A DNA stretch of 32,000 bases from the NCBI RefSeq assembly GCF_000218565.1, contig NC_015684.1, forward strand, positions 1,998,829-2,030,828, written 5' to 3'. Source of the DNA: Afipia carboxidovorans OM5. GTDB taxonomy: Bacteria; Pseudomonadota; Alphaproteobacteria; Rhizobiales; Xanthobacteraceae. The notes beneath the pieces are model-generated. The model saw only the letters and a program-made list of their open reading frames with translations, did no database searches and was not told where the DNA came from. Below are positions 4,954 through 32,000 of the stretch, piece by piece; the stretch's first letter is position 1; every line of letters starts with the position of its first letter. Both the position numbers and the translations under genes were made by a program.

Positions 4954-6387
4954 ATGCCGTTCCGTCACCTGACCACTATGCGCCGCCGCTCGTTCCTCAC
5001 CGGCAGCGCCGCCCTTGCCGCAGCCGCGACGCTGCCGCGCGCGGCGTTCGCGCAGATGCCGGCAGTGAAGGAATTCAAACTGACGGCCGCGCAGGGCAGA
5101 ACCTCATTCGCCGCCGACGTCATCCCGTCAACCGAGGTGTGGGAGTATAACGGGCAGGTGCCGGGGCCTGAGATCCGCGTCAAGCAGGGCGAGCGTGTCC
5201 GCATCGTCGTGAAGAACGGGTTGGCGGAGGAGACCACCGTGCATTGGCATGGGCTGCGGCTGCCGAACGCGATGGACGGCGTTCCGCATCTCACCCAGAA
5301 GCCGATCGCAACCGGCGACAGCTTCACCTACGAGTTCGATTGCGTCGATGCCGGGACGTTCTGGTATCACCCGCATTCGCGCAGCTCGGTGCAGGTCGGC
5401 CGCGGCCTCTCCGGTCCGTTCATCGTCGAGGAGCGTGAGCCGATCGCGGTCGATCGCGATATCACCTGGGCGCTCAACGACTGGCGCCTTCTCAAGGATG
5501 CCTCGATCAGCAACGATTTCGGCAACATGCATGATATGAGTCATGCGGGCCGCATCGGCAATTTCATCACCGTCAACGGCATCTCGCCGGAGACGTTCGA
5601 GGTGCGAAGCGGCGAGCGCATCCGGCTGCGGCTCATCAACACGTCAAACGCGCGCATCTTCGGCCTCACCTTCGAGGGCCATGCGCCGACCATCGTGGCG
5701 ATGGATGGCCATCCGGTTACGCCGCATGCGCCGGAAAAGGGGCAGGTCGTGATCGGGCCGGCGATGCGCGTCGATCTCGTGATCGATATGACCGCCGCGC
5801 CGGGCAGCCGCTTCAAGGTGATGGACTCGTTTTACCAGCAGCAGGAATTCCGGCTGTTTCACATGGTCTACGCCGACAAGCCGCTGCGCGCCGAGCCGCG
5901 CACCGATGCGATCGCGCTTCCACATAACCCGGTGCCCGAGCCGGACCTCGCCACGGCGCAACGCCATGACGTGGTGCTGGGCGGCGGCATGATGGGGCAG
6001 ATGGCTTCGGCACAAGTCGGCGGCGAGACGATGGATATCCGCACCATGCTGCGGCATGGGCTGATCTGGGCAATCAACGGCGTGGCCTCGACCGAGCATG
6101 TGCATGAGCCGATGGCGACGCTGAAGCGCGGCACCTCGCATATCCTTGCCATGGAAAACGAGACGGCGTGGTGGCACCCGATGCACCTTCACGGCCATGC
6201 GTTCCGCGTGCTGAGCCGCAACGGCGTGCCGACTAGGCATCGCGAGTGGCGGGACACGGTGTTGGTCGCGCCGCGCGAGCGTGTCGAGGTGGCGTTCGTC
6301 GCCGATAACCCCGGTGACTGGATGTTTCACTGCCATGTGCTCGAGCATCAGGCCGGCGGTATGATGGGCACGGTGCGCGTCATCTGA
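4954..6387 (+). CDS. Tat-exported three-domain multicopper oxidase
   Basis: Twin-arginine signal MRRRSFLTGSAALAAAATLPRAAFA. Copper-ligand motifs HWHG, WYHPH, HPMHLHGH and HCHVLEHQAGGMM. ATG at 4954 lies 7 nt after GAGGA; the ORF is open from 4882 and 4930 is an alternative start. Confidence 0.85.
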   Translation: MPFRHLTTMRRRSFLTGSAALAAAATLPRAAFAQMPAVKEFKLTAAQGRTSFAADVIPSTEVWEYNGQVPGPEIRVKQGERVRIVVKNGLAEETTVHWHGLRLPNAMDGVPHLTQKPIATGDSFTYEFDCVDAGTFWYHPHSRSSVQVGRGLSGPFIVEEREPIAVDRDITWALNDWRLLKDASISNDFGNMHDMSHAGRIGNFITVNGISPETFEVRSGERIRLRLINTSNARIFGLTFEGHAPTIVAMDGHPVTPHAPEKGQVVIGPAMRVDLVIDMTAAPGSRFKVMDSFYQQQEFRLFHMVYADKPLRAEPRTDAIALPHNPVPEPDLATAQRHDVVLGGGMMGQMASAQVGGETMDIRTMLRHGLIWAINGVASTEHVHEPMATLKRGTSHILAMENETAWWHPMHLHGHAFRVLSRNGVPTRHREWRDTVLVAPRERVEVAFVADNPGDWMFHCHVLEHQAGGMMGTVRVI

Positions 6388-9703: not shown

Positions 9704-11983
9704 TCAAGTGCAGGCCTTCACCATCTTCTTGTAATGATCCTTTCCGACCTCCTTGATGAAGTTGATACCTGCATCGGCCGCGCGGATGGCTTCTTCCAAC
9801 GTAAGGTCTGGTAGGGTGCTAAGCCCATCAATTGTACCGTGAGACTCAATTTGAACGAGGCGTTCGAGGGCCCGAACGTCGAGCTTATCTTTCACTGCCT
9901 CGTGGTGATCCCCAAGCGCACCAGCAAAATTGGATTGCCCTGGAGAACAGAAGGTGGCGAACATCTCAAGGAGCTTGCGGGTCGCGTTTGGAAGTAGAAA
10001 CATATAGTCGGTCGTCTTCTTCTGCGCCGCGTCCTGAACTATGCTGAAAAGATAGTGATATTCACTATCATAATTCACAAGCAGCTTGTGCATAAGTATG
10101 AGCGAGGTGACGCGGTCATTTCCATCTCCCGAGGCCCGACAATCAAGCGATAGGAGTGCCGCCACCTTTTTGGTTTCATCTCGTTTCTGCAAGTTTTGAA
10201 ACTCACGCTTCACCATGTTCATAAAGCTTGTGTTGTGGGTAAGAACGATGACCTGAGCGCACTTTTTGGTCATGCGTGTCATCAGGCTGTAAGCGAAAGT
10301 CCGAGCCGTGGTATCGAGGCTCGATATCGGATCATCAATAACCAGTACCAGGTCTTCAGCTTCACGGCCCTCGGCGGCCAGCAGAGTCAAAAAATAGCAG
10401 AAGGAAACAGCCGTACGTTCCCCTTCGCTTAGTTCTGTCGCAGGCCTCCCGTTTGGGCGAAAAATTTTGTATCCGCCATCTTCTGCAACAAGGCGAAGTT
10501 CCTTATGCCCAAGGTAAGCCCAAATGAGCTCGTTCATTTTGTCTGCGCCGACACCGTTGTCTTGCAAGTCGTTGCGAAGTGCCAGTTGGTGGTCAAAAAG
10601 GCTTTTCTCTTCTGTTTGCGCGGTTGTCTGCTCCGTCTCAGCACCTTCGACAGCCTTCTGAAGACGGTCCCATTCACTTTGATTAGTCGCCAAGACGTGG
10701 GCTTCGATTTTCGTGAACGCGTCTTTTTGCATTGCTGCAAAGCTTACAAAGGCGTCATTGTGCTTCTGCACGGCCGCCGCCAAGACTGCCTCGATGGTCG
10801 CGTATTCTGTGAGCCAGTTGTCGAAGTCAAAGCTTGCAATTTCCCCCGCAACCACCCCTGCTTTGGTGGGGTTTGCAATTCTCGCTTCCAAGCCTTTGAG
10901 AAGTTCTCCGACATACACACCGATCTGCTTAATGGCCGTCTCCATAAGCGCCCGGCTCTTGGCAAAAAATTTCCGTTCCTCTGCGGTAATCTCAACTTCC
11001 TTGGGGATGGAACGATAAAACTCTCTTAGATCCTGTTGGTGCTCCTGCCCGCGCTTCACGGCATCTTCCAAAGATCTCAGTGCGTCGGTCCACGATTTGT
11101 CGAACAAAACTCGGAGCCGAGCTCTGCGATCCTCCGAAAAAAGATTGCCGCAAAGAAGACAGTCCGACACGCCGTGCTCGTCATGGTAGTGAAGCCCTTC
11201 TTCTACCCACCGAAGAACATTCGAATGCGCTTCAAACTCATTCAGAGCGATTCCTGAAACACTTTGTGTGAGAAGCGACTGACTAGCTTTGAACCAATTG
11301 GCCAGCCCCTCAGGGAGACTTGGGGAAAAAGCAAGGCTTGGGAGCGGTTCCCGTTGAGTAAGAAGCCCTTGATGCATTTTGAGTTTATCTTCGGGCAGCT
11401 TTTTCTCCGGGCCAAAGGATACTTTTGAATAGTGCCCCTGAATCTTCCGCGCGTCGTAGGACTGTGTGTAGCTGCTTGAAGAGGCCACCTCGCGGATATT
11501 ACGGGCCACTCGAGTTTTAAAGTCTGACAAGTCCTTGTCAGCCTTTCTCTTAGCGCTCTCCTTTGCCTTAGTTTTCTGTTTCGCGGCCAAAAGCTTCGGT
11601 GTTATCTCATCATATTCTTTACGAGCACCGACCTTCTTTTCGCTCAGATAGGCAATTCCCTTTGTGCTACTAGCATCCCATTCAAAATTTCTGGATACGA
11701 AGTCCGTATTGAAAACCAGAAGATTATTCCCAAACGGGTTTGAGATAGGGTCTTGCGTAACAATCGTTCCGTCTGACGTTTCGATTTTAAAGGTGGTTTC
11801 TTTTGGTAACCGATCTTCTAAGTTTCCCCGTTCTATCGACGAAAACACTCTAGATAAGGTGGTCTTTCCGGAACCATTAAACCCATAGATCAAAGTGCGG
11901 GGAGCTAATTGCAAATCCTCTGAAGCGCAAAAGTCTTTCCATACTCCCGCTTGTTTAAGCTCTGAAAGCCTCCGGACAATCAT
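9704..11983 (-). CDS. AAA_13-family ABC-type ATPase with CxxC coiled-coil insert and PrrC/RloC-like C-terminal region (candidate anticodon-nuclease-type defence protein)
   Basis: Walker A GFNGSGKTT, a long coiled-coil insert containing DCLLCGNLF, ABC signature LSEGERTA, Walker B LVLVIDDPISSLD, H-loop VLTHN, and C-terminal NATRKLLEMF...VQIESHG (R-x3-E...H). Visibly AT-richer than its flanks. I prefer the start at MIVRRLSEL (11983), with 12028 as an alternative. The 888-aa ORF reaching 12370 is rejected. Confidence 0.75.
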   Translation of the reverse strand: MIVRRLSELKQAGVWKDFCASEDLQLAPRTLIYGFNGSGKTTLSRVFSSIERGNLEDRLPKETTFKIETSDGTIVTQDPISNPFGNNLLVFNTDFVSRNFEWDASSTKGIAYLSEKKVGARKEYDEITPKLLAAKQKTKAKESAKRKADKDLSDFKTRVARNIREVASSSSYTQSYDARKIQGHYSKVSFGPEKKLPEDKLKMHQGLLTQREPLPSLAFSPSLPEGLANWFKASQSLLTQSVSGIALNEFEAHSNVLRWVEEGLHYHDEHGVSDCLLCGNLFSEDRRARLRVLFDKSWTDALRSLEDAVKRGQEHQQDLREFYRSIPKEVEITAEERKFFAKSRALMETAIKQIGVYVGELLKGLEARIANPTKAGVVAGEIASFDFDNWLTEYATIEAVLAAAVQKHNDAFVSFAAMQKDAFTKIEAHVLATNQSEWDRLQKAVEGAETEQTTAQTEEKSLFDHQLALRNDLQDNGVGADKMNELIWAYLGHKELRLVAEDGGYKIFRPNGRPATELSEGERTAVSFCYFLTLLAAEGREAEDLVLVIDDPISSLDTTARTFAYSLMTRMTKKCAQVIVLTHNTSFMNMVKREFQNLQKRDETKKVAALLSLDCRASGDGNDRVTSLILMHKLLVNYDSEYHYLFSIVQDAAQKKTTDYMFLLPNATRKLLEMFATFCSPGQSNFAGALGDHHEAVKDKLDVRALERLVQIESHGTIDGLSTLPDLTLEEAIRAADAGINFIKEVGKDHYKKMVKACT

Positions 11984-12142
11984 ATCCCGCGCGCCCCACA
12001 TCAGAATTGCAACAGTCAACGTACTCATACCAATAGAGGCTAGCAACCATCGGGAGAGCAGGCGCGTTGGAGCAATGAAAAGTAGAAAGGGTGCGTCTGA
12101 CTGCCTCGCAGCACGGCAGCGTCGGAGGGCCTGAGGCCCAAG

Positions 12143-12161
12143 TGGCGGAAGGGGTGTCCGC
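12143..12161. repeat. 19-bp direct repeat TGGCGGAAGGGGTGTCCGC, copy 1 (putative att site of the island)
   Basis: Identical 19-mer at 29438-29456. Each copy lies about 100-140 bp upstream of a homologous P4-type integrase gene. It contains the hairpin GCGGA-AGGGGTG-TCCGC. Confidence 0.7.
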
Positions 12162-12225
12162 TGGAAACCCAACCTTAGTGGTTTTATCGTCCGATTGCCT
12201 TGTAAAAAAGCACTAAAGTCAGTAA

Positions 12226-12254
12226 TGCCGGTATGGTGGTTATGACAACCGGCA
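12226..12254. promoter_or_regulatory. Inverted repeat TGCCGGT-N15-ACCGGCA immediately upstream of int
   Basis: 7-bp perfect arms ending 7 bp before the int ATG. An analogous 8-bp-arm inverted repeat precedes the second int gene. Confidence 0.4.
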
Positions 12255-12260
12255 GAGAAA

Positions 12261-13433
12261 ATGGCCCGTAACAAGCTGAGCGAAACGAAGATCAAGGCGA
12301 TTTCCAAGCCGGGAATATACGGCGACGGTGACGGCCTATTCATTCGAGTCCAAAAGACCGGCAGCCGCAACTGGCTGTTCGTGTATCGCCGCGGTCAACA
12401 GCGTAATGAGATCGGGCTTGGTGGATATGGACAAGGCACCGCACCGGTTTCGCTGCCGCTGGCCCGAGAGAAGGCCGACGCAATCCGGCAGCAACTCGCC
12501 CGAGGTGAGGATCCCCGCGCATCGCGAAACGCGATCAAACCGAAGACGTTTGGCGAGGTGATGGAGCAACTGCTCACGGCCAAGGAATCCGAGTGGACCA
12601 ACCCCAAGCACGCTGAGCAATGGAAGATGACGCTGCGGACGTACGCCAAGCCGCTGCACCGTCTGCCGGTGGCTGATATCGTGATGGGCGACGTTAAAGA
12701 CTGTATCCTGCCACACTGGGCCGAACGGCCCGAGACGGCGGCACGTCTGCGGTCCCGCATTCAAGCGGTGATCGACTACGCAATCGCCCATGAGTGGCGC
12801 TCGGCTGGGAATCCGGCCCGGTGGGGAGGTTTGCTTGAGAAGGTAATGCCCAAGCGCCAAAAGTTATCGCGCGGCCACCATGCCGCGCTGGCCTATGCGG
12901 ACGCGCCCCAGACGATCGAGGCGCTGCGGCATTCTTCGGGTACGGCGGCGCGAGCGGTGGAGTTTATAGCGCTGACGGTGGCTCGGTCGGGCGAGGCCCG
13001 GTACTCGACCTTCGCAGAGGTGGACGTGAAGGCCAAAACATGGACCGTCCCCGCCGAGAGGATGAAGGCGGGTAAGGAGCATATCGTCCCGCTCACAGCC
13101 CGCGCGCTCCAGATCGTCGAGGCCATGAGGCAACGGGCAACCGGCGATTATATCTTCGGCGGTGCACAAGACAGTAAGCCGATCAGCGATACCGCAATGG
13201 TGAAGGCGCTACGGTTGGCATCGCCAGATAAGGCCGCGACTCTCCACGGGCTACGATCGACGTTTCGGGACTGGGCCGGCGACAAGACGAAATTTCCACG
13301 CGACATAGCGGAAATGGCATTGGCGCATGCGGTCGGGGACGAAACCGAGCGCGCCTATCGGCGAAGCACCGCTCTCGCCCAGCGTAGGAAACTGATGGAT
13401 GCGTGGGAAAGGTATCTAAATACCGACAAATAA
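12261..13433 (+). CDS. int: Tyrosine recombinase/integrase, P4/CP4-57 type with N-terminal Arm (DUF4102-like) domain
   Basis: N-terminus MARNKLSETKIKA...GDGDGLFIRV...WLFVYR. Catalytic-region motifs TVARSGEAR, HGLRSTFRDWAG and ERAYRR. Confidence 0.95.
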   Translation: MARNKLSETKIKAISKPGIYGDGDGLFIRVQKTGSRNWLFVYRRGQQRNEIGLGGYGQGTAPVSLPLAREKADAIRQQLARGEDPRASRNAIKPKTFGEVMEQLLTAKESEWTNPKHAEQWKMTLRTYAKPLHRLPVADIVMGDVKDCILPHWAERPETAARLRSRIQAVIDYAIAHEWRSAGNPARWGGLLEKVMPKRQKLSRGHHAALAYADAPQTIEALRHSSGTAARAVEFIALTVARSGEARYSTFAEVDVKAKTWTVPAERMKAGKEHIVPLTARALQIVEAMRQRATGDYIFGGAQDSKPISDTAMVKALRLASPDKAATLHGLRSTFRDWAGDKTKFPRDIAEMALAHAVGDETERAYRRSTALAQRRKLMDAWERYLNTDK

Positions 13434-16088: not shown

Positions 16089-16223
16089 TTCCAACCCACC
16101 TTCCAACGCCTTCCAACGGTTTTGTAAGTCGTTGAAATCATTGATGTTCGCACACCAATTACGGTAACTTCCAACGGTGGACTAACTCATTGATTTTATT
16201 CGCTTCCAACGCCTTCCAACGGG
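16088..16223. repeat. Iteron cluster: five CTTCCAACG copies, two of them as TTCCAACGCCTTCCAACGG doublets (putative satellite origin of replication)
   Basis: Copies at 16100-16108, 16110-16118, 16168-16176, 16203-16211 and 16213-16221. The 19-bp doublet repeats at 16101-16119 and 16204-16222. TCATTGAT occurs twice. The cluster is non-coding and lies directly after the replication ATPase gene. Confidence 0.6.
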
Positions 16224-23161: not shown

Positions 23162-23496
23162 TGACCACAGCCGGCGACTTACGCGAGAACGTTGAACTGC
23201 TAAAACAGGTTTCCGTCAGTGACGGTGCCGGCGGTTCAACGACGGAATGGGTTGCACAGTTCCAGGCGCGTGCCGCCATCAAGGTTTTGAAGGCTGGCGA
23301 AACCGTCTTGGCTGGCCGCTTGCAGGGCACGCAGACCCTTGTGATTACCGTGCGCTGGCAATCTGCGCTCGCTGAAGTAGAGGGCACATGGCGCTTGCGG
23401 AATGTCCGCACCGATAGCGAGTACAACATTCGCGCCGTTACGCCGGACACGCGCAAGGCATTTGCCGATATCCTATGTGAGACTGACGAGCTTTAA
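23161..23496 (+). CDS. Phage head closure / head-tail adaptor protein (Phage_H_T_join-like)
   Basis: GDLRENVELLKQ...DGAGGSTTEWV...ARAAIKVLKAGE...ITVRW...YNIRAV pattern. TAATG overlaps at both ends. Confidence 0.75.
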   Translation: MTTAGDLRENVELLKQVSVSDGAGGSTTEWVAQFQARAAIKVLKAGETVLAGRLQGTQTLVITVRWQSALAEVEGTWRLRNVRTDSEYNIRAVTPDTRKAFADILCETDEL

Positions 23497-25100
23497 TGCG
23501 TCCCGCCTGGCTCTTTGATGACAGCGAAATAGCAGACCCGCTTGGCTACGGCCAACGTGCGGTGGATTTTCTGCGCGCACTTAAGCATCCGAAGTCGCGG
23601 CTTGCAGGCCGAGCGTTCCAACTCGACCCATGGGTTGAGCGGCTGGTGCGGCGCATTTATGGCCCGCGCGATGCTGATGGCCAACGTCAGGTCCGAACCG
23701 TTTTCGCCATGGTGCCACGCGGCGCGCGCAAAACCTCGATCGGTGCTGCGCTCGTTTGTCTGCATACCTTCGGCGCGGAACGCGTACCGAACGGCCAGAC
23801 CGTATCCGCAGCAGCCGACGCCAAACAGGCTCGCATTGCGTATGACGAAGCGACCGGCATCATTCACGCCGACCCGATCATTGCAAAAAAGCTAAAGCTC
23901 CGGCCCGGCACCTACAAGATTCAACACGTCCGCAAGGGCGCGACATACGAGGCCATCTCCAGCGACGGCGCGACACAACACGGCAGGACGGTAAACTTCC
24001 TGTTGTCGGATGAAATCCATGCGTGGAAGAAACGCGACCTATGGGAGGCGCTGCGAACCTCTCTGGCAAAGACCTCAGAGTCATTGCACGTCATCACGAC
24101 CACGGCGGGCCGCGGCCAAGAGAATCTGGCGTTCGATATTTACGAATACGCCAAACGTGTTGCGTCTGGCGAGATAGAGGATCCGACATTCCTCCCGGTG
24201 TTGTTCGAACCGGATAAGGGCGCGGATTGGAAAGATGAGGCGGTCTGGCACGAAGTCAATCCCGGTCTGGCGCTTGGCTATCCTGACATCAAGGGCTTGC
24301 GTGCGATGGCGCGTGAGGCTGAGAGCCGCCCCTCAGATCAAGACGCCTTCAAACAGTATCATTTGAACTTCTGGCCGGACCACTCGTCGAGTCCGTTTGT
24401 CGACATGGCGACCTATGATGAAGGCGCCGAACCGATCGATCTAACCGCCCTTGAAGGTGGGGAATGCTGGCTGGCGGCGGACTTGTCGAGCAGTACCGAC
24501 TTGACGGTTATCATTGCGGCGTTCCGTGAGGGCGACGGCTACGTTGCCGTGCCGTGGTTTTTTTGTCCGCGCGACAATCTGCGGCAGCGACAGGAATCAA
24601 CCGGCGCACCTTACATCCGTTGGGCTGAGGAAGGCTTGATTACTGCCACACCCGGCAACGTGATCGACTTTCGCACCGTCGAAAACAAGGTTCGCGAACT
24701 CTGCGAAACCTACAGCGTCCAGGAAATCGCTTTCGATCCCGCGATGGCGCGCAACATCATGAACAACCTGCTTGAGGATGGCTACCCAGCGATCGAACAC
24801 CGGCAAGGTAGCCTATCGATGATGCCCGCCATTGCAGAACTTGAGCGGGCGATCGTTGCGAAACGCTTCCGGCATGGAGGCCATCCGGTGTTGAGATTCT
24901 GTTTTGCCAACGTCCAGGCTGAAACCAATCCGGCTGGGCATATCGTTCGCTTCACCAAGCAAAAGAAATGGCTTTCCATCGATGGCGCACAAGCGTCGGC
25001 CATGGCGGTCAACCGGGCGTCGTCTGGCGGCAGCGCTTCGGTGACATCGCTTTACGACGATCCTGAGTGGGAGAAGGCGTTGGAGGGACTTAACTCTTGA
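23496..25100 (+). CDS. terL: Terminase large subunit
   Basis: 534 aa. N-terminal FQLDPWVERLVRRIYG. ATPase region (VPRGARKTS, LLSDEIH) and a C-terminal nuclease-like region, typical of Terminase_1-type TerL. Confidence 0.9.
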   Translation: MRPAWLFDDSEIADPLGYGQRAVDFLRALKHPKSRLAGRAFQLDPWVERLVRRIYGPRDADGQRQVRTVFAMVPRGARKTSIGAALVCLHTFGAERVPNGQTVSAAADAKQARIAYDEATGIIHADPIIAKKLKLRPGTYKIQHVRKGATYEAISSDGATQHGRTVNFLLSDEIHAWKKRDLWEALRTSLAKTSESLHVITTTAGRGQENLAFDIYEYAKRVASGEIEDPTFLPVLFEPDKGADWKDEAVWHEVNPGLALGYPDIKGLRAMAREAESRPSDQDAFKQYHLNFWPDHSSSPFVDMATYDEGAEPIDLTALEGGECWLAADLSSSTDLTVIIAAFREGDGYVAVPWFFCPRDNLRQRQESTGAPYIRWAEEGLITATPGNVIDFRTVENKVRELCETYSVQEIAFDPAMARNIMNNLLEDGYPAIEHRQGSLSMMPAIAELERAIVAKRFRHGGHPVLRFCFANVQAETNPAGHIVRFTKQKKWLSIDGAQASAMAVNRASSGGSASVTSLYDDPEWEKALEGLNS

Positions 25101-25157
25101 TCAGCCTAAATGCCGAGGTTTGACGATAGAGCGTCTGGACGTATGATGCGTTATTGA

Positions 25158-25706
25158 ATGAGGGCGCGCATGCAGATTGAATTGACACAGAAAGAGCAGG
25201 AATGGCTATCTAACCTTGAGCTAGACCAGTCGAAGGTAACGGACCACGACGATTGGAAGCGGAATAGTGAGATCGCCGCTGCATTGACAAAATCACTTCT
25301 GGATAGAAAAGCGGTTCCAGCGCAGAGACTCAAATATTTTCTCGATCCCAACTATAGAACAGGAAGAATGAAAGGGTCGCGGTTCGATATCTTTAAACGT
25401 AACGGTCGTGATTTCGAAGAAACGATACGCCACAACAATTTTTTAAAGCACCTGCGCTACTTCCTGTTCGGCGCGAATCTTCCAGAACCGATCGTCTCTT
25501 CGTTTAGCCAAGCGATCAAAGACTGTGGGGAATATGTCTCTTCCGGCGATGCTTACGACTTATCACGGAAAGCGCGCACGCTGTATCGGCAATCGGGTTT
25601 GGAGCGCGAATTCGCCGCTGACGAATTCTTTAAGCTCTCGATCGATCTCGGTGTCTCAGCATCGGAAGCCATGTCAATACGCAAGGCCGTTATAGACGCT
25701 CGATAG
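25158..25706 (+). CDS. Hypothetical protein (182 aa), AT-rich cargo gene
   Basis: First gene after terL. Visibly lower GC. No family recognised. ATG at 25170 is an alternative start. Confidence 0.55.
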   Translation: MRARMQIELTQKEQEWLSNLELDQSKVTDHDDWKRNSEIAAALTKSLLDRKAVPAQRLKYFLDPNYRTGRMKGSRFDIFKRNGRDFEETIRHNNFLKHLRYFLFGANLPEPIVSSFSQAIKDCGEYVSSGDAYDLSRKARTLYRQSGLEREFAADEFFKLSIDLGVSASEAMSIRKAVIDAR

Positions 25707-25718
25707 TCATTTATCGCC

Positions 25719-26621
25719 TCAAATTGCTGGCCAGTGTTTTGTGCTGAGGTACCGTTCGTGAGCGTCGATCAGTTCGACTACTCGACTTCGGAGGTCATCC
25801 AATAGCGGGGTAAAATGGTCGCTTAATTCGTCTTCACCGATAAACTGAAAGTAAATTTTAAGCGTCTCGTTGATGACTAGCGCCAACGTGGTGACCATCT
25901 GCGGTCTCGGAGTGCGCCAGTTCAGTTTAGGTTCGAAGTTAGCTTCGCCATCCCACTCAACGTGGTTCGCATAGATTTCCTGCCAATTCCCGTGGATGCT
26001 ATGAGAGCCGCCGCCGAATGCTGCCAGATACAATTCTTCGAGATCAACATCCCGCGCTTTGTCAAAAGTGTTTTTCCCGCCCCATGGCCGTTTGTCTTTC
26101 AAGTCGATCTCGTCTAGCGCAATCCGAGCGCTTTTGGCGGCACGCTCGATAGACTGAAGCATTCGGTCTTCGATCGGAAGGACAACTCCGTTGCGTGCGT
26201 GAATGGCTTTGCGGATTTTGTCTCTCAGCTTCCGCTCATGTCGCAGGGAATATGCAACGTAAGAATCAATCAATGACTTGGAAAAATTCTTTATTAGAAA
26301 TCGAATATTGACAGTTGTCTCGAAAACAAGCCTCGCCAGTATCATGCTGGTTTCGTCTCGACGTTGGCAAACCTGATCGAGAAAGGAGTCGAGTAGCTTA
26401 TATTGGCGGACCATGTTGCCACCAACCGCTGCCTTGTCTCGATCCCATGTCGGTTCGGCCCCCATGGTTCCTGCAGCAACGCAACAATAGCTTGCGGTTT
26501 CAACCATCAGGGAGACGGCAAGCGAGGTAAATTCGGATTCAGACTTGAAGGATAGGACAGTTTCCTGGCGCACTTCGACGCGCTCAATTTTGGGGACAGA
26601 GTGTCCGAGCATACAAATCAA
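25719..26621 (-). CDS. Hypothetical 300-aa all-alpha protein, partner of the upstream nuclease-like gene (possibly DUF5677-like; unverified)
   Basis: TTG at 26621 overlaps the upstream stop (TTGA); ATG at 26612 is an alternative start. Helix-rich sequence with the GGGSHSIHGNWQEI motif. AT-rich. Confidence 0.65.
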   Translation of the reverse strand: MICMLGHSVPKIERVEVRQETVLSFKSESEFTSLAVSLMVETASYCCVAAGTMGAEPTWDRDKAAVGGNMVRQYKLLDSFLDQVCQRRDETSMILARLVFETTVNIRFLIKNFSKSLIDSYVAYSLRHERKLRDKIRKAIHARNGVVLPIEDRMLQSIERAAKSARIALDEIDLKDKRPWGGKNTFDKARDVDLEELYLAAFGGGSHSIHGNWQEIYANHVEWDGEANFEPKLNWRTPRPQMVTTLALVINETLKIYFQFIGEDELSDHFTPLLDDLRSRVVELIDAHERYLSTKHWPAI

Positions 26622-28090
26622 GCCTTAGAGCCCGATGGTTTGTTGTCGTCGCGCGCATCGATAAGCACGATATCCTTACTGTCTGTCAGTTTAAGTTTCT
26701 TCAAAATTGCATTGACCTTACGAAGTTCAGCAATACTGAAATAGATAATCACCTTAATCGCGTTTTTCGCATCGCTCGCGGCTTGGTAAATCGGTACTTG
26801 CTTCTCAAGGTTTCGTTCTAGCTGTGTATTCTTTGCCAGCTTCATTTCGACAAGTGTTTTGTCGTCGGCACCTCGTGAGATTTTGAAGTCAACTGGCCCT
26901 CTGCCATCGTTCGCCTCGGTGCCAACATCTGAAGGCGTCCCGAACCAGACTAGGCGATAAAGGATTTGAAGGTCCTTTTCCCGCTGAATTGGTTTTCCGT
27001 CGTGATAAAATAGCCGGTGTCCGCCCTTGCTCTCGATGGCATCCTTCAGATAGCGGACACGGGCATGCGCCTCTTCATAGGTGCCGCCGCCGGTTCCGTA
27101 GAAGGCGGTCTTATGAAGCAGGGTGTTTTGAATTTCGGCGATCTGCCGGATGAATATGTATTCGGTTGCAAGTACCTTCTCGGCGCTGAGGTCTGCAGCT
27201 TCGTCTCCGCGCTGTTCCTTCAACTTGATGTAGTAATCGATGAGCTGCGGGAATTCTAACAAAGTTCTTCTGGCAGCTTCCGAACGCTCTTTCGCGCTGG
27301 GACGGCGTCGACGACCGGGTCTATCAAGGATCTTGTGGAAATAATTCTCAACCTGCGCCCGTAGCTGTGAATCTGGAATGGCTGTCGGAATTTCCTGAAA
27401 GTCGCCAACCAAATCGCCTTTGTTGATCCAGTTTTCATCTCTGGTCAGGATATCCTTCGGAGTCAGGATGACGAAATCACCATTAACCCACGGCAGTGCA
27501 TATGTGGTTCGCTCCCATGTCTCGGTCTCGTAATTGAATCGAGTCTTCTCTACAGCCACCTGCCGCACGTCGTTAGGCTTCAGGTGCTGCGCAGCGAACT
27601 TTTCAGTATATCGACACAGATAATCCTTAATTAGATTAGTCGTGAAATCGCTGATGTTGTCGCGTCCGACACCATCGGAGATCAAGCACACCTTTTCCAA
27701 GTGGCTTCCCTCGGTGATTCCTTCCTCGCCGAAGTCTGAGAACAAGCTGTGCAGATTACTGTGTAAGGCCCGAGCGAAATCCATCCCGAGTCCGGTCCCG
27801 CCGTTGCCGCTAATCGAGAAACCGAGCCAGTTCTGCTTCACCTCACTGAAGCAGTACCAGCTCGATAGCAGCGCATCGCTGATCGCCCCCTTCGCAGATC
27901 GATCGCGGAGGAATACTAGGTAATCGATCATCGAGTCGTGAAGGGTGCGGTACTCATCCTTCTCGCTGTTAAACAGCAGGAAGGGATCGATAAATAAGGG
28001 AAGGTCATTAACGATCGAAATGTTCAGGGCACCGCAACTATCTAGCGTTCCCGCATCGATTCCGAAATACTCATTAAAAAAGGTGGCCAC
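26618..28090 (-). CDS. Hypothetical 490-aa protein: unknown N-terminal domain plus C-terminal RecB/PD-(D/E)xK-like nuclease motifs
   Basis: GTG start 7 nt after GAGG. The C-terminus carries E371, D401 (GPVDF), E415-x-K417 (VEMK) and Q431-x3-Y435 (QVPIY) in the order and spacing of RecB-family nucleases. AT-rich. Confidence 0.72.
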   Translation of the reverse strand: MATFFNEYFGIDAGTLDSCGALNISIVNDLPLFIDPFLLFNSEKDEYRTLHDSMIDYLVFLRDRSAKGAISDALLSSWYCFSEVKQNWLGFSISGNGGTGLGMDFARALHSNLHSLFSDFGEEGITEGSHLEKVCLISDGVGRDNISDFTTNLIKDYLCRYTEKFAAQHLKPNDVRQVAVEKTRFNYETETWERTTYALPWVNGDFVILTPKDILTRDENWINKGDLVGDFQEIPTAIPDSQLRAQVENYFHKILDRPGRRRRPSAKERSEAARRTLLEFPQLIDYYIKLKEQRGDEAADLSAEKVLATEYIFIRQIAEIQNTLLHKTAFYGTGGGTYEEAHARVRYLKDAIESKGGHRLFYHDGKPIQREKDLQILYRLVWFGTPSDVGTEANDGRGPVDFKISRGADDKTLVEMKLAKNTQLERNLEKQVPIYQAASDAKNAIKVIIYFSIAELRKVNAILKKLKLTDSKDIVLIDARDDNKPSGSKA

Positions 28091-28229
28091 GGAAACGCCT
28101 CTCGTTCAAACGCAATCAATCCGTCCGACACGCGGCGAGGGCCGCAGAAATAGCAGCAACAAACTTGATTTTCACGATGGTTTTCTCCCAGCCTGCATAG
28201 CCTACCTCAGGTTGAAGGGAGACTGGAAA

Positions 28230-28322
28230 CTAACCTTTTGGCAAGAGGCCGATTTCCACAAGCCTGCGGATGGACTCTGACCGTGATGGTTTGTCGGGCT
28301 GAAGCGCAGCCCATTCGTCTAG
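28230..28322 (-). pseudogene. 3' remnant of a second RHH-family gene (no start codon, about 30 codons)
   Basis: Translates to LDEWAALQPDKPSRSESIRRLVEIGLLPKG*. It aligns with the C-terminus of the intact RHH protein (VDSWIAKHDDAPTRPEAIRTLLRKGL, about 12 of 26 identical by eye). The frame is closed by TAA at 28344-28346. Confidence 0.45.
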
Positions 28323-28329
28323 GCGCGCC

Positions 28330-28824
28330 TCAGGCTTTGGGTTTTATCGGCCCGATCCGTTTTCTGTACGGCCGGTTTTTGAAACTCGTTTGCACCAATG
28401 CGTAATAATCGCCATTCCGTAAATTCGGCAGAATATCCGGCCTCGATCGGATAACGCCAGTCCATTGGTGCGCCGGCTCTAGAAGCTGCGGAATGTTGCG
28501 CGGATAGCCCTTCAGTTGAGGGTTAGTCACCACATAACTGCTGATCGCTCTTCGCCTCCAGAAATAATAGAAGGGGTAACGCTCTTCGATGGCGAGGTTG
28601 GTAATCATGGTGGCTGACGTGCCAACGTTTGTAGCGTTCACGATGACAAGGTCGCGCTCGTCAAACTCCGGATCACCGCCGACTACTAGGCCATCCGATA
28701 TGACGGACATTCGCAAGCGCGGTCCACTCGTCAGCCAGTTTCGGAATTGAATCAGTAATGCGCCGGTTGAAACGCAGGCCGCATAGATTGCGATCCAAAT
28801 GCCTATGGTGCCGGGTTCTGTCAC
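28330..28824 (-). CDS. Hypothetical N-terminally membrane-anchored protein (164 aa)
   Basis: GTG at 28824 overlaps the RHH stop (GTGA). One TM helix (IGIWIAIYAACVSTGALLIQF), then a beta-rich domain. The longer 191-aa ORF would overlap the RHH gene by 85 nt. Confidence 0.6.
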   Translation of the reverse strand: MTEPGTIGIWIAIYAACVSTGALLIQFRNWLTSGPRLRMSVISDGLVVGGDPEFDERDLVIVNATNVGTSATMITNLAIEERYPFYYFWRRRAISSYVVTNPQLKGYPRNIPQLLEPAHQWTGVIRSRPDILPNLRNGDYYALVQTSFKNRPYRKRIGPIKPKA

Positions 28825-29015
28825 TTGCCCTTGGCTAGCCCTTTGCGCAGCAGCGTGCGGATGGCCTCCGGCCTTGTCGGCGCGTCGTCGTGTTTTGCAA
28901 TCCACGAGTCAACCGCTTCCAGATCGTCAGGCTGAAGCCGAACGCCTACGAGCGTACCCTTGCCGGTGGCGGGAGGCCCGCGCCTTTTCTGTGTTATCAC
29001 GGTTTGACGTTTCAT
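28821..29015 (-). CDS. Ribbon-helix-helix (Arc/MetJ/CopG-type) DNA-binding protein
   Basis: GPPATGKGTLVGVRLQPDDLEAVDSWIA...RPEAIRTLLRKGL shows a beta-strand followed by two helices. ATG at 29015 is preferred; the ORF is open to 29078. Confidence 0.68.
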   Translation of the reverse strand: MKRQTVITQKRRGPPATGKGTLVGVRLQPDDLEAVDSWIAKHDDAPTRPEAIRTLLRKGLAKGK

Positions 29016-29038
29016 TGAAATCTGTGTTATCACGGTTT
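28988..29038. repeat. Two perfect 18-bp direct repeats TCTGTGTTATCACGGTTT spaced 33 bp apart, flanking the RHH start codon (putative operator)
   Basis: Copies at 28988-29005 and 29021-29038. Each contains the near-palindrome GTGTTATCAC. Confidence 0.6.
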
Positions 29039-29080
29039 TCGGCTGGCGAATAGTCCCAGCCGGAAATGGGGATTGCATTT

Positions 29081-29437: not shown

Positions 29438-29456
29438 TGGCGGAAGGGGTGTCCGC
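29438..29456. repeat. 19-bp direct repeat TGGCGGAAGGGGTGTCCGC, copy 2 (junction between the two tandem islands)
   Basis: Identical to 12143-12161. It lies 139 bp upstream of the second integrase gene. Confidence 0.7.
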
Positions 29457-29594: not shown

Positions 29595-30812
29595 ATGGCG
29601 CGCAACAGGCTCACCACCACTCAATGCAATGCGCGCCGCAAGGCCGGAAAGCTGGCAGACGGTGACGGTCTCTATCTGCAGACGAGCCCCAACGGAAATA
29701 AGAGCTTCGTTTTCGTTTTCATCCGTAGCGGTCGGCGGCGGGAGATGGGACTCGGCCCATTCGGGACCGGTACGGGGCAAGTTTCGCTCGCTGCTGCACG
29801 CGACAAGGCGGACGAAGTCCGTGCCATCCTTGGGCGCGGCGGCGATCCCTTCACGGAGCTATCCTCCCGCCGCGCAACCAGCCGGACGTTCGGCGCTTTC
29901 GCCGCCGAGTGGGTTGAGGGCATGGCGGAGGGCTGGCGCAACGAGAAGCACCGGGATCAATGGCGCATGACGTTGCTGGGCGTAACCAGCAAGATCGACA
30001 AGGATGGTAAGCCGATCAAGGCCAAGCACGACTACTGTGCGTCGCTGCGCAAGATTCCCGTTGCCGACGTGGCCACCGATGACGTGCTGAAGGTGATACG
30101 CCCCATCTGGAAGACCAAGCCCGAAACCGCCCGTCGCATCCGTGGCCGGATTGAGCGCGTCCTAGATGCCGCTAAGGCGGCTGGTGAGCGCACTGGCGAA
30201 AACCCCGCACGATGGCGCGGCCATTTATCAGAGTTGTTGTCCAAGCCCGAGAAGCTCCAGCGGGGTCATCACAAGGCCTTGCCCTACAAAGAGGTGCCAG
30301 CCTTTATGAAGCGGCTGAGGGCGATGAGTTCGATTTCCGCTCTATCTGTCGAATTCACGATTCTAACGGCGGCCCGATCGGGCGAGACGCGCGGCGCAAC
30401 ATGGTCTGAGATTTGGGACGACGTTTGGATTATCCCCGCCGAGCGCATGAAAGGGGGCAGGGAGCACCGAGTCCCGTTAGTCTCGCGCGCGCTGGAAATC
30501 CTTGAGGCCGTGAAAAAAGTGCGCACCTCTGACTTTATCTTTCCGGGCTTCCGAGACGATCGGCCGCTTTCCGACATGTCCCTATCAGCGGTGCTGCGGC
30601 GGCTGGAGGTGGACGCCACCGTCCATGGCTTCCGGTCCTCGTTTCGAGACTGGGCCGGCGATGCCACGGATTTTCCAAGAGAATTGGCCGAGGCGGCGCT
30701 GGCGCATCTGGTTGGCGACGAGACGGAGAGAGCGTACAGGCGAGGGGATGCCCTTAAGCGGCGGCGGGAACTTATGGCGGCCTGGGCACAATATTTAGTA
30801 AGTGGAAAATAA
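29595..30812 (+). CDS. int: Tyrosine recombinase/integrase, P4/CP4-57 type (paralog of 12261..13433)
   Basis: MARNRLTTTQ...GDGDGLYLQ..., TAARSGETR, HGFRSSFRDWAG and ERAYRR. Roughly half of its positions are identical to the first integrase by eye. Confidence 0.95.
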   Translation: MARNRLTTTQCNARRKAGKLADGDGLYLQTSPNGNKSFVFVFIRSGRRREMGLGPFGTGTGQVSLAAARDKADEVRAILGRGGDPFTELSSRRATSRTFGAFAAEWVEGMAEGWRNEKHRDQWRMTLLGVTSKIDKDGKPIKAKHDYCASLRKIPVADVATDDVLKVIRPIWKTKPETARRIRGRIERVLDAAKAAGERTGENPARWRGHLSELLSKPEKLQRGHHKALPYKEVPAFMKRLRAMSSISALSVEFTILTAARSGETRGATWSEIWDDVWIIPAERMKGGREHRVPLVSRALEILEAVKKVRTSDFIFPGFRDDRPLSDMSLSAVLRRLEVDATVHGFRSSFRDWAGDATDFPRELAEAALAHLVGDETERAYRRGDALKRRRELMAAWAQYLVSGK

Positions 30813-30826
30813 TTTCACCATAGTCC

Positions 30827-30855
30827 TTGACCATGGCGGCTATGTTGTCCTATAT
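30827..30855 (+). promoter_or_regulatory. Sigma70-like promoter TTGACC-N17-CTATAT upstream of the second alpA
   Basis: Same hexamers and spacing as 13448-13476. Confidence 0.5.
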
Positions 30856-30984
30856 TACTGGAGCCTAGGGGCGTTAGCCCCCAAGCGTGACGGCCTTAAA
30901 TTCGCTTCCGTGCGTGCACTGGGGAGCGGGCGGCGCTATCGGTCAATTGGCTGACAACAGCCTCATCCCTGACCACAAAAATCC

Positions 30985-31224
30985 ATGACTCTGAATCCGT
31001 CCTCGGACGAGCCTGCGCTCGTCTCGATGAAGAGCGTCGTCGCCATGACGTCGCTCTCCCGCACAATGATCAATCGATATCGCGTCGACGGGAAATTCCC
31101 CGCCGCCGTGCCTTTGGGTGACCGAAGGGTCGCCTTTGTTCGTAACGAAATCAATGACTGGATCGCCGCCCGCATCGCTGCGCGTGCGGCGAACGACAAC
31201 GTCAAGATGCGGGAGGTGGCGTGA
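30985..31224 (+). CDS. alpA: AlpA-family phage regulatory protein / excisionase-like HTH
   Basis: LVSMKSVVAMTSLSRTMINRYRVDGKFPAAVPLGDRRVAFVRNEINDWI is homologous to 13579..13821. Confidence 0.85.
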   Translation: MTLNPSSDEPALVSMKSVVAMTSLSRTMINRYRVDGKFPAAVPLGDRRVAFVRNEINDWIAARIAARAANDNVKMREVA

Positions 31225-31335
31225 TGGAGCACCTCCCGCTGGCCGCCAACGACAATAATCGAAGCGGCACCCCAGCCGCCGAATCGTACCACTGGCTTTA
31301 GCCATGTGCACCCGTAGTCAACTAGGACCAGACCA

Positions 31336-31590
31336 TTGCGAATATTAGCAATCCGTCCGGCGCCACCGGGCTCGGCAACGCTTGCGCGTTTCGATCTTCA
31401 GCTAAACGGTCACCTTCGTCTCTATAACTTGGCGCTTCGTCAGCGTGGCGAAGAGCCAGCGCATGTCTGTGCACCGAACGCGTTCAATGAACGTGTCGCC
31501 GGATTCAGCGCGCCATTCAACAAGGCGCTTGCCGAACTCGCCCTTAAATCCCTAGTGGAGCTTCAGACCCAGAATGAACTCGCTTCATAA
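31336..31590 (+). CDS. Conserved small island protein (84 aa), paralog of 14111..14335
   Basis: The TTG start gives MRILAIRPAPPGS, matching MRILNYRPAPSGG in island 1. The 3' end overlaps the next gene. Confidence 0.55.
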   Translation: MRILAIRPAPPGSATLARFDLQLNGHLRLYNLALRQRGEEPAHVCAPNAFNERVAGFSAPFNKALAELALKSLVELQTQNELAS

Positions 31591-32000
31591 TCTCGCCGAC
31601 GCCCTCGGCGGCGACGTCATCAGTAATCGGTGCATCCTCTGCCCTGGTCCCGCTCACAGCCGTAAGGATCGCAGCCTCAAGGTCAAGTTCAGGCCAGACG
31701 GCACCTTCAGCGTCACCAGCTTCGCGGGTGATGATTGGCGGGAATGTAAGGACTTCATCCGCGAACGCCTCGGACTTCCGAGCGATTGGAAGCGCCAGCC
31801 AGCCAACGACGATAAGCCCATCATCCGACTGCGCGAACGCGATGACGACGAGCCTGCGCGCATCCGCTCCGCGCTGATGCGATGGGAGCACGCCATCCCG
31901 ATCGCCGGAACGCTTGCCGAGCGATATCTCGCGTCGCGCGGCCTGACCTATAACGGCGACGCAATCCGCTACCGCGTGAACGACCGGAGCATGGTGGCGT
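31574..32000 (+). CDS. Zinc-ribbon primase-like replication protein (P4-alpha/Toprim-associated N-terminal domain), 3' end outside the window
   Basis: I translated it by hand from ATG 31574 and it stays open to the window end. It is absent from the ORF track, presumably because no stop falls inside the window. CILCPGPAHSRKDRSLKVKF..DGTFSVTSFAGDDWRECKDFI is the zinc-binding motif seen at the N-terminus of P4-type and island primases. Confidence 0.7.
   Translation, partial: MNSLHNLADALGGDVISNRCILCPGPAHSRKDRSLKVKFRPDGTFSVTSFAGDDWRECKDFIRERLGLPSDWKRQPANDDKPIIRLRERDDDEPARIRSALMRWEHAIPIAGTLAERYLASRGLTYNGDAIRYRVNDRSMVA

Follow-up and report, generated by a model that had tools for sequence, protein, structure and literature searches.

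Shedu (SduA) and similar bacterial systems consist of a single polypeptide in which a noncatalytic N-terminal module is followed by a C-terminal PD-(D/E)xK nuclease, and their distribution is sporadic and mobile. In Shedu, the nuclease domain (DUF4263/SduA_C) is conserved and the N-termini are variable. Modular conflict proteins with effector-associated domains (EADs), reportedly described by Kaur, Burroughs, Iyer and Aravind in 2020, are said to be built around NTPase (STAND-type) cores. A constant module combined with interchangeable effectors that kill the cell or deplete NAD or nucleotides is a signature of prokaryotic immune and conflict proteins. Here we analyzed a 32,000-nucleotide stretch of the genome of Afipia carboxidovorans OM5 (contig NC_015684.1, positions 1,998,829 to 2,030,828), hereafter called the window, which contains a satellite-like mobile element carrying two adjacent cargo genes. 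The first, referred to as the large gene (positions 26618 to 28090, minus strand), codes for a 490-residue protein from a GTG start, and the second (positions 25719 to 26612, minus strand) codes for a 297-residue protein of the DUF5677 family. A sequence-only reading of the window had presented them as a coupled operon and a candidate anti-phage system. Our analyses argue that they are probably two independent cargo genes, the larger of which would encode a stand-alone protein made of a DUF8370 sensor and a PD-(D/E)xK effector, acting in defense or abortive infection.

The exact sequence of the large protein carries precomputed Pfam assignments to DUF8370 (PF28123) and DUF8371 (PF28130), two models that are newer than our local Pfam copy and absent from it, and PHROG 30194 is matched along the whole protein (E = 4e-35). 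Searches of the local Pfam, NCBIfam and PDB-sequence collections gave no match. The protein is a member of a family whose catalogue entries have no assigned function, and its N-terminal ~360 residues, previously described as family-less, contain the DUF8370 core; the motifs FIDPFLLF and GNGGTGLGMDFARAL pointed out at that time are present in the protein. More than 6,600 homologs were found among the candidates scored, clustering at 50% identity gave 2,417 representatives, and the family occupies at least 515 loci in species-representative genomes. It spans the Alpha- and Gammaproteobacteria, Firmicutes, Cyanobacteria, Acidobacteriota, Chloroflexi, Bacteroidota, Planctomycetota and the candidate phyla radiation, with 53 to 90% full-length identity.

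The only match in PADLOC was partial and to a candidate, residues 6 to 231 aligning with positions 9 to 225 of the 457-position PDC-M36A profile (E = 3.8e-21). PADLOC PDC-x entries are unpublished, unvalidated candidates (PMC11811056). The large protein shares an N-terminal subdomain with PDC-M36 component A, but only half of the profile is matched and the C-terminal halves differ; the DUF5677 protein and the neighboring genes match no PADLOC model. Membership in PDC-M36 was rejected on these grounds. Membership in Shedu was rejected as well, as SduA_C was matched weakly by 1 of 29 C-terminal domains taken from diverse members (E = 0.072) and no PADLOC Shedu match was obtained. The earlier statement that the locus corresponds to no named defense system was thus borne out. 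Pfam (as DUFs) and PHROG already list the family, and PADLOC has a candidate that matches it in part, yet it is unnamed, and its sensor module appears to be new. The combination of a sensor and a swappable effector in a single protein is a known kind of logic.

The C-terminal block of the large protein (positions 26621 to 27010, minus strand; residues ~361 to 490, the DUF8371 part) had been proposed to carry E371, D401, E415-x-K417 and Q431-x3-Y435, in the motif order of RecB/Cas4-type PD-(D/E)xK nucleases. All six residues are invariant in an alignment of 45 homologs. The putative catalytic codons lie between positions 26786 and 26980 on the minus strand (E371, 26978 to 26980; D401, 26888 to 26890; E415, 26846 to 26848; K417, 26840 to 26842; Q431, 26798 to 26800; Y435, 26786 to 26788). 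The set of six is complete in 59 of the 83 diverse representatives that have a full C-terminal domain, and it is degenerate where another effector is appended. An AlphaFold2 (AF2) model predicts an alpha-beta-beta-beta-alpha-beta topology, with helices at residues 371 to 382 and 424 to 439 and strands at 388 to 390, 402 to 406, 410 to 418 and 443 to 450. The predicted local distance difference test (pLDDT) score of this domain is mostly between 70 and 94, with a minimum of ~50 around residues 391 to 400. The catalytic residues of PD-(D/E)xK enzymes (D401, E415 and K417) and their core fold order were both found, the latter in the AF2 model.

When the C-terminal domains were searched in isolation, 17 of the 29 from diverse members gave weak matches to Pfam PDDEXK_9 (PF08011), the best with an E value of 2.6e-5, and there were stray matches to DpnII-MboI, SduA_C and PDDEXK_3. 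One homolog carries a precomputed DpnII-MboI match. In the Foldseek searches with the large-protein model nothing was significant, but the top lists were rich in PD-(D/E)xK nucleases: PspGI, Cdn1, NucS/EndoMS, SfsA, Can2 and Mus81 came from the PDB, and restriction endonucleases of the Mrr and other types from BFVD. Because of the invariant E-D-ExK-QxxxY residues, the matching predicted topology, the PDDEXK_9 matches and the nuclease-rich Foldseek lists, we accept that the C-terminal block belongs to the PD-(D/E)xK superfamily, and nuclease activity is predicted. The proposed superfamily and motif order, with QxxxY after ExK, are therefore kept, but the RecB/Cas4 label is not: the best profile is PDDEXK_9, PDDEXK_1 and Cas_Cas4 are not among the matches listed for the 29 domains, and the alignment of C-terminal domains contains no invariant Cys, hence no Cas4-type four-cysteine cluster. 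The D...ExK core is common to the family and PDDEXK_9, but PDDEXK_9 proteins usually follow an AAA-ATPase-like domain, not DUF8370. The C-terminal tail of the protein (residues 481 to 490; positions 26621 to 26650, minus strand; …D-N-K-P-S-G-S-K-A) is nearly invariant family-wide, and K484 and S488 are invariant even in diverse members, which is unusual at a protein terminus.

The N-terminal conserved module (positions 27011 to 28090, minus strand; residues 1 to ~360) comprises the DUF8370 core and a helical linker, and is presumed to be a sensor or regulator. Most of it is helical, and it also has a long beta-hairpin, a loop rich in Gly (GNGGxGxG) and Asp residues that do not vary; D35-P36, N96, G98, D144, D148 and W221 are invariant across representatives. 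No solved structural relative was found for it by Foldseek or by PDB-sequence search. Longer relatives of the large protein retain this module (~300 to 390 residues), and what follows it differs. The nuclease is replaced by a TIR domain in five relatives, by CHAT in one and by EAD7 in another. In other relatives, effectors are appended: SIR2 and TIR/SEFIR in one protein each, caspase in two (one of which also carries EAD7), PNP in one and CHAT in two, and the nuclease-like domain of these relatives has decayed catalytic residues. The TIR fusions contain DUF8370 and lack DUF8371, which identifies DUF8370 as the constant module and DUF8371 as the exchangeable nuclease part.

This interchange of effectors on a constant module is our main ground for seeing a sensor or switch in the N-terminal module and its effector in the nuclease. 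A defense role is plausible for the large protein, since its relatives swap the nuclease for TIR, SIR2, CHAT, caspase, PNP or EAD7; the proposal of a candidate anti-phage system thus survives for this protein alone, but not for the pair. In contrast to Shedu, the family has a conserved N-terminal module and a varying C-terminal effector. Like the EAD conflict proteins, relatives of the large protein carry EAD7, caspase, CHAT, TIR or SIR2 at the effector position, but no NTPase domain was recognized in its N-terminal module.

The two genes lie in an element bounded by an exact 19-nt direct repeat, TGGCGGAAGGGGTGTCCGC, a putative att core whose left copy (positions 12143 to 12161) is ~100 nt upstream of the integrase gene (12261 to 13433) and whose right copy is at 29438 to 29456. 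Such a repeat is expected by chance ~0.001 times in 24 kb, and only the core aligns, the flanks do not. The 17.3 kb between the repeats code for an integrase, a primase/helicase, a portal, an S78 protease, a capsid protein, an HNH protein, TerS, a head-closure protein, a connector and TerL. No tail or lysis family was found among the open reading frames (ORFs) scanned between the repeats, a scan that left out ORFs below 110 aa and two small ORFs, nor in the source-genome gene table from 16.6 to 32 kb of the window. A gene set of this kind defines capsid-forming phage-inducible chromosomal island (cfPICI) satellites, which are known to carry defense genes (PMC10085698). The cfPICI core genes (integrase, primase-replicase, HNH, protease, capsid, portal, head-tail connector/adaptor, terS and terL) are all present, and tail or holin genes are absent from the ORFs scanned. 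An AlpA-type regulator was not identified in the satellite of the window. On its gene content, we regard the element as a cfPICI-like satellite; it differs from most described cfPICIs, which come from Enterobacteriaceae or Firmicutes, in having an alphaproteobacterial host.

Both cargo genes are placed between TerL (positions 23496 to 25100, plus strand; Pfam TerL_ATPase and TerL_nuclease), the final backbone gene before the cargo slot, and the right repeat copy. In 28 sister satellites found through TerL (47 to 82% identity), the 113 ORFs of the region after TerL form 90 clusters, of which 80 have a single member. This region is a highly variable cargo slot, as the sequence-only reading had supposed when it placed two minus-strand ORFs in an accessory slot between terL and the right att repeat. 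The two genes are also AT-richer than their surroundings, as had been noted. Their GC content is 0.505 for the large gene and 0.503 for the DUF5677 gene, with third-codon-position values (GC3) of 0.59 and 0.55, versus 0.55 to 0.61 for the satellite structural genes and 0.63 to 0.65 for host genes, whose GC3 is ~0.84. As a side observation, TerL is directly followed in 11 more distant sister elements by a protein of ~640 to 1,240 aa that is homologous among them and that the window does not have.

The case for a coupled pair had been built in part on a 4-nt TTGA stop/start overlap at positions 26618 to 26621. This overlap arose because the longest ORF was picked, which runs from 25719 to 26621 and codes for 300 aa from a TTG at 26621. 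The 93%-identical DUF5677 homolog of a sister satellite, designated L089, starts at the ATG equivalent to window position 26612. The source-genome gene call likewise gives a 297-aa protein starting 5 nt past the large-gene stop, and DUF5677 homologs are mostly 296 to 299 aa long. The two genes are therefore very probably separated by 5 nt and do not overlap. A promoter and terminator scan of the locus gave chance-level results and was uninformative.

We then compared the genomic surroundings of each gene. None of 84 large-gene loci, from 80 species in more than 10 phyla, has a DUF5677 relative within ~6 kb, whether searched with a subfamily hidden Markov model (HMM), a broader HMM or a four-round jackhmmer search. 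Conversely, none of 85 DUF5677-subfamily loci contains a member of the large family; 63 of these include at least 300 nt upstream of the DUF5677 gene and 42 at least 1,500 nt. None of the 28 sister satellites carries either gene after TerL. The gene tables of the loci that were looked up agree with this absence of co-occurrence. In Bradyrhizobium, a 92%-identical large-protein homolog is found by itself on an integrase island, and the families differ in size, with more than 6,600 matches versus 112 for the DUF5677 subfamily. The large gene has no recurrent neighbor of any kind across homolog loci. ORFs of 175 to 182 aa lie tightly downstream of it at four loci (L003, L014, L057 and L087), but they are mutually unrelated, and a recurrent downstream partner was rejected. 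At one of these, in Rhizobium ruizarguesonis (L003, 7479 to 9700), the large-protein homolog is followed after 9 nt by an unrelated 180-aa ORF and then by a gene for a KAP-family NTPase; an anti-phage role of KAP NTPases has recently been demonstrated (PMC12632615).

The DNA homologies of the two genes also part at their junction. A 1.53-kb cassette (positions 26613 to 28147), which extends beyond the large gene by 57 nt on its upstream side and 5 nt on its downstream side, is found in other genomes in unrelated contexts. In blastn comparisons, it is shared with Bradyrhizobium genomes across 26613 to 28147 only (87% for L001/L002, 85% for L050 and 78% for L009). The adjoining block from 23388 to 26613, comprising the 3' end of the head-closure gene, TerL, a 182-aa ORF and the DUF5677 gene, is shared with L089 at 80% by blastn. 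There the homology ends a single base ahead of the DUF5677 ATG, and the sequences then diverge. From this split at 26613 and the absence of co-occurrence, we conclude that the two genes arrived separately and have different evolutionary histories. Neither the co-occurrence nor the conserved order expected of a coupled system was found among homologs, and the claim of a two-gene operon acting as one system was abandoned. Neighboring positions in a cargo slot, even with a start/stop overlap, are not enough to define a system; in this case, comparison with relatives separates the genes cleanly.

In line with its mobility, the large gene occurs in integrase islands, as well as on plasmids, where Tn3 and IS256 transposases flank it, and its distribution is sporadic, with pseudogenized and truncated copies. 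Its flanks in other species include integrases, resolvases, type I restriction-modification specificity subunits, McrBC, Schlafen-type helicases and MADS mad5; the flank-gene survey was not used as proof of defense-island enrichment. Some copies in Bradyrhizobium look decayed, such as one at 6001 to 7472 of L050, whose best intact ORF is only 265 aa, and four plasmid copies cover only residues 241/264 to 490, in two pieces.

Taken together, the proposed scenario is as follows. Two separately acquired cargo genes would have been stacked head-to-tail after terL in the satellite. The N-terminal module of the large protein would act as a sensor or switch that holds the nuclease off until it perceives infection or a foreign-DNA cue. 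The nuclease would then cut DNA, either that of the invader or that of the cell itself, in an abortive-infection response, and the host of the satellite, hence the satellite, would be protected from competing phages. The DUF5677 gene would be co-transcribed with the large gene, probably only because it lies 5 nt downstream.

Several observations weigh against this scenario. With 5 nt between them, the two genes could still be functionally coupled in this particular strain. Structural support for the nuclease is weak: nothing significant came out of the comparisons, the AF2 model of the large protein is of moderate quality (pLDDT of 74 overall), and the C-terminal domain of the window protein itself has no PDDEXK_9 match at E of 1 or below. 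Many large-gene flanks are housekeeping genes, in a survey without a background control, and plasmid copies are all annotated "hypothetical protein" and sited among transposases. A tblastn search of 50,697 phage GenBank records gave no match to the large protein, and we found no mention of DUF8370, DUF8371 or PDC-M36 in the literature. Lastly, DUF8370/DUF8371 proteins are 53 to 70% identical over their full length between distant phyla (e.g., Paenibacillus, Cyanobacteria, Acidobacteriota and Alphaproteobacteria). This conservation is unusual for an immune sensor, far above that of typical phage-sensing defense proteins, and it could mean an enzymatic or housekeeping-like role.

The alternatives concern either the DUF5677 protein, the function of the large protein, or the pair. 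The DUF5677 protein matches Pfam DUF5677 (PF18928) with an E value of 2.4e-27 and 96.5 bits, versus a gathering threshold of 27.1 bits, over profile positions 2 to 165 of 166. Its AF2 model is all-alpha (pLDDT of 93.6). The earlier description of an all-alpha partner of DUF5677 type was thus right, although the resemblance, called faint, is clear. Foldseek searches of the PDB and a PDB-sequence profile search returned only generic helical bundles, and a HEPN-like assignment was left unsupported. Judging from where its relatives are found, it would be a separate accessory protein that travels alone between prophage and satellite cargo sites.

It is possible, though rather unlikely, that this protein is itself an independent single-gene defense or Abi-like cargo, in which case the slot would hold two separate defense genes. 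Its prophage or satellite cargo positions fit this idea. The gene lies beside TerL in L089 and L092, near a ThsB_TIR gene in L090 and near a serine recombinase gene in L005; an HEPN_AbiU2 gene adjoins it in L136, and across L136 and L140 its neighbors are HEPN_AbiU2 or DUF4145 genes. The protein contains invariant Arg, Glu and His residues, and a preprint reports that DUF5677 is enriched near defense-linked serine recombinases (PMC12632615). However, that study assayed a single DUF5677 ORF, from a Firmicute, against six phages in E. faecalis, and the five ORFs that gave protection did not include it (PMC12632615). In addition, the DUF5677 protein has no PADLOC match, and the structure and sequence searches revealed no relative of known function. 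DUF5677 was not found in IMG/VR.

That the large protein is not anti-phage at all we consider unlikely. It could instead be a selfish or maintenance nuclease of mobile elements, serving competition between elements, addiction, or the processing and recombination of DNA; alternatively, it could be a conserved enzyme of a DNA-repair-like kind. The very high cross-phylum conservation would suit such roles, as would its occurrence on plasmids and in islands, often beside housekeeping genes. The conserved Gly-rich loop and the acidic motifs of the N-terminal module could form an enzyme site, and no phage-defense phenotype has been reported. Against this, swaps for or additions of TIR, SIR2, caspase, CHAT, PNP and EAD7 are typical of immune and conflict proteins, not of repair or maintenance enzymes. 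The sporadic distribution with its pseudogenized and truncated copies, and the match of the N-terminal region to PDC-M36A, also argue for the immune role.

Least probable, at best a slim chance, is a lineage-specific two-component system in which the DUF5677 protein would be a regulator, an immunity or antitoxin partner or a co-sensor made from the same transcript: the genes share a strand, 5 nt apart, with no terminator-like site between them in the uninformative scan, their arrangement is kept in all contigs with the exact protein, though from the same organism, and ~10 of 42 DUF5677 genes follow another gene (HEPN_AbiU2, DUF4145 and AAA_14/DUF4143 among them) at a distance of 20 nt or less, as a generic downstream partner would, but the pair recurred in 0 of 84, 0 of 63 and 0 of 28 loci, the 92%-identical homolog of the large protein is solitary, the 93%-identical DUF5677 gene of L089 has unrelated sequence upstream, and the upstream neighbors of DUF5677 genes are mutually unrelated, one being the housekeeping gene for ClpB.

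The remainder of the cargo slot contains further ORFs. The 182-aa cargo ORF (positions 25158 to 25706, plus strand; GC content of 0.488), inherited along with the DUF5677 and TerL genes, is 88% identical to its counterpart in L089 and has no Pfam, PADLOC, NCBIfam or PHROG match. An ORF of at most 191 aa (28330 to 28905, minus strand), whose start is uncertain (126, 164 or 191 aa called), contains a hydrophobic helix and matches no family in the same four collections. At the right end of the satellite, an 85-aa ORF (28821 to 29078, minus strand) matches the transcriptional repressor family PHROG 4738 (E = 4e-8) and would code for a ribbon-helix-helix-like repressor. An exact 18-nt direct repeat, TCTGTGTTATCACGGTTT, occurs in or near this ORF at 28988 to 29005 and 29021 to 29038, 33 nt apart, and may serve as an operator or as an arm site for the integrase. 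At about 28230 to 28340 on the minus strand, upstream of the large-gene cassette, there is a remnant of a ribbon-helix-helix-type gene ending in '...LDEWAALQPDKPSRSESIRRLVEIGLLPKG*', with an in-frame stop before it and no start codon; this truncated remnant suggests past gene turnover in the slot.

Elsewhere in the window, an exact 20-nt repeat, CTTCCAACGCCTTCCAACGG, made of two CTTCCAACG units, is present at 16100 to 16119 and 16203 to 16222, just past the primase/helicase gene, and may represent iterons of the satellite replication origin. A second cfPICI-like satellite follows in tandem directly after the right 19-nt repeat (positions 29595 to 32000 and onward; locus L175, 1 to 8500), with an integrase gene at 29595 to 30812 and then, in the source genome, AlpA, Toprim_3/DUF7146, AAA_25 and capsid genes. 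Just left of the left repeat, a patch of 50% GC contains an 888-aa AAA_13 ATPase ORF (9704 to 12370, minus strand; Pfam E = 4e-118) that also has weak AAA_21/AbiEii-like and SMC_N matches, making it a further candidate defense-type cargo gene, outside the satellite.

As regards the DUF8370 family as a whole, it may be, a view that we hold with some reserve, that DUF8370 is an unrecognized, phylum-spanning immune sensor with a new fold, the core of a large single-protein defense family whose outputs are commonly PD-(D/E)xK and otherwise TIR, SIR2, caspase/CHAT, PNP or EAD7. Its unusual conservation would then imply that it does not sense a variable phage protein but a universal cue of infection, for instance a structure of nucleic acids or a signal derived from nucleotides. 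The interest of the locus is tempered by the failure of the coupled-pair claim and by the existence of many such candidate families; it remains through the size, breadth, conservation and effector swaps of this one. If the proposed immune role is correct, DUF8370-DUF8371 proteins would be among the larger uncharacterized single-gene defense families. Their sensor module has no known structural counterpart and their effectors are swapped in a series found in nature, so they would offer a tractable system for finding out what a conserved sensor detects, and the element described here would add an alphaproteobacterial capsid-forming satellite to those that carry defense cargo.

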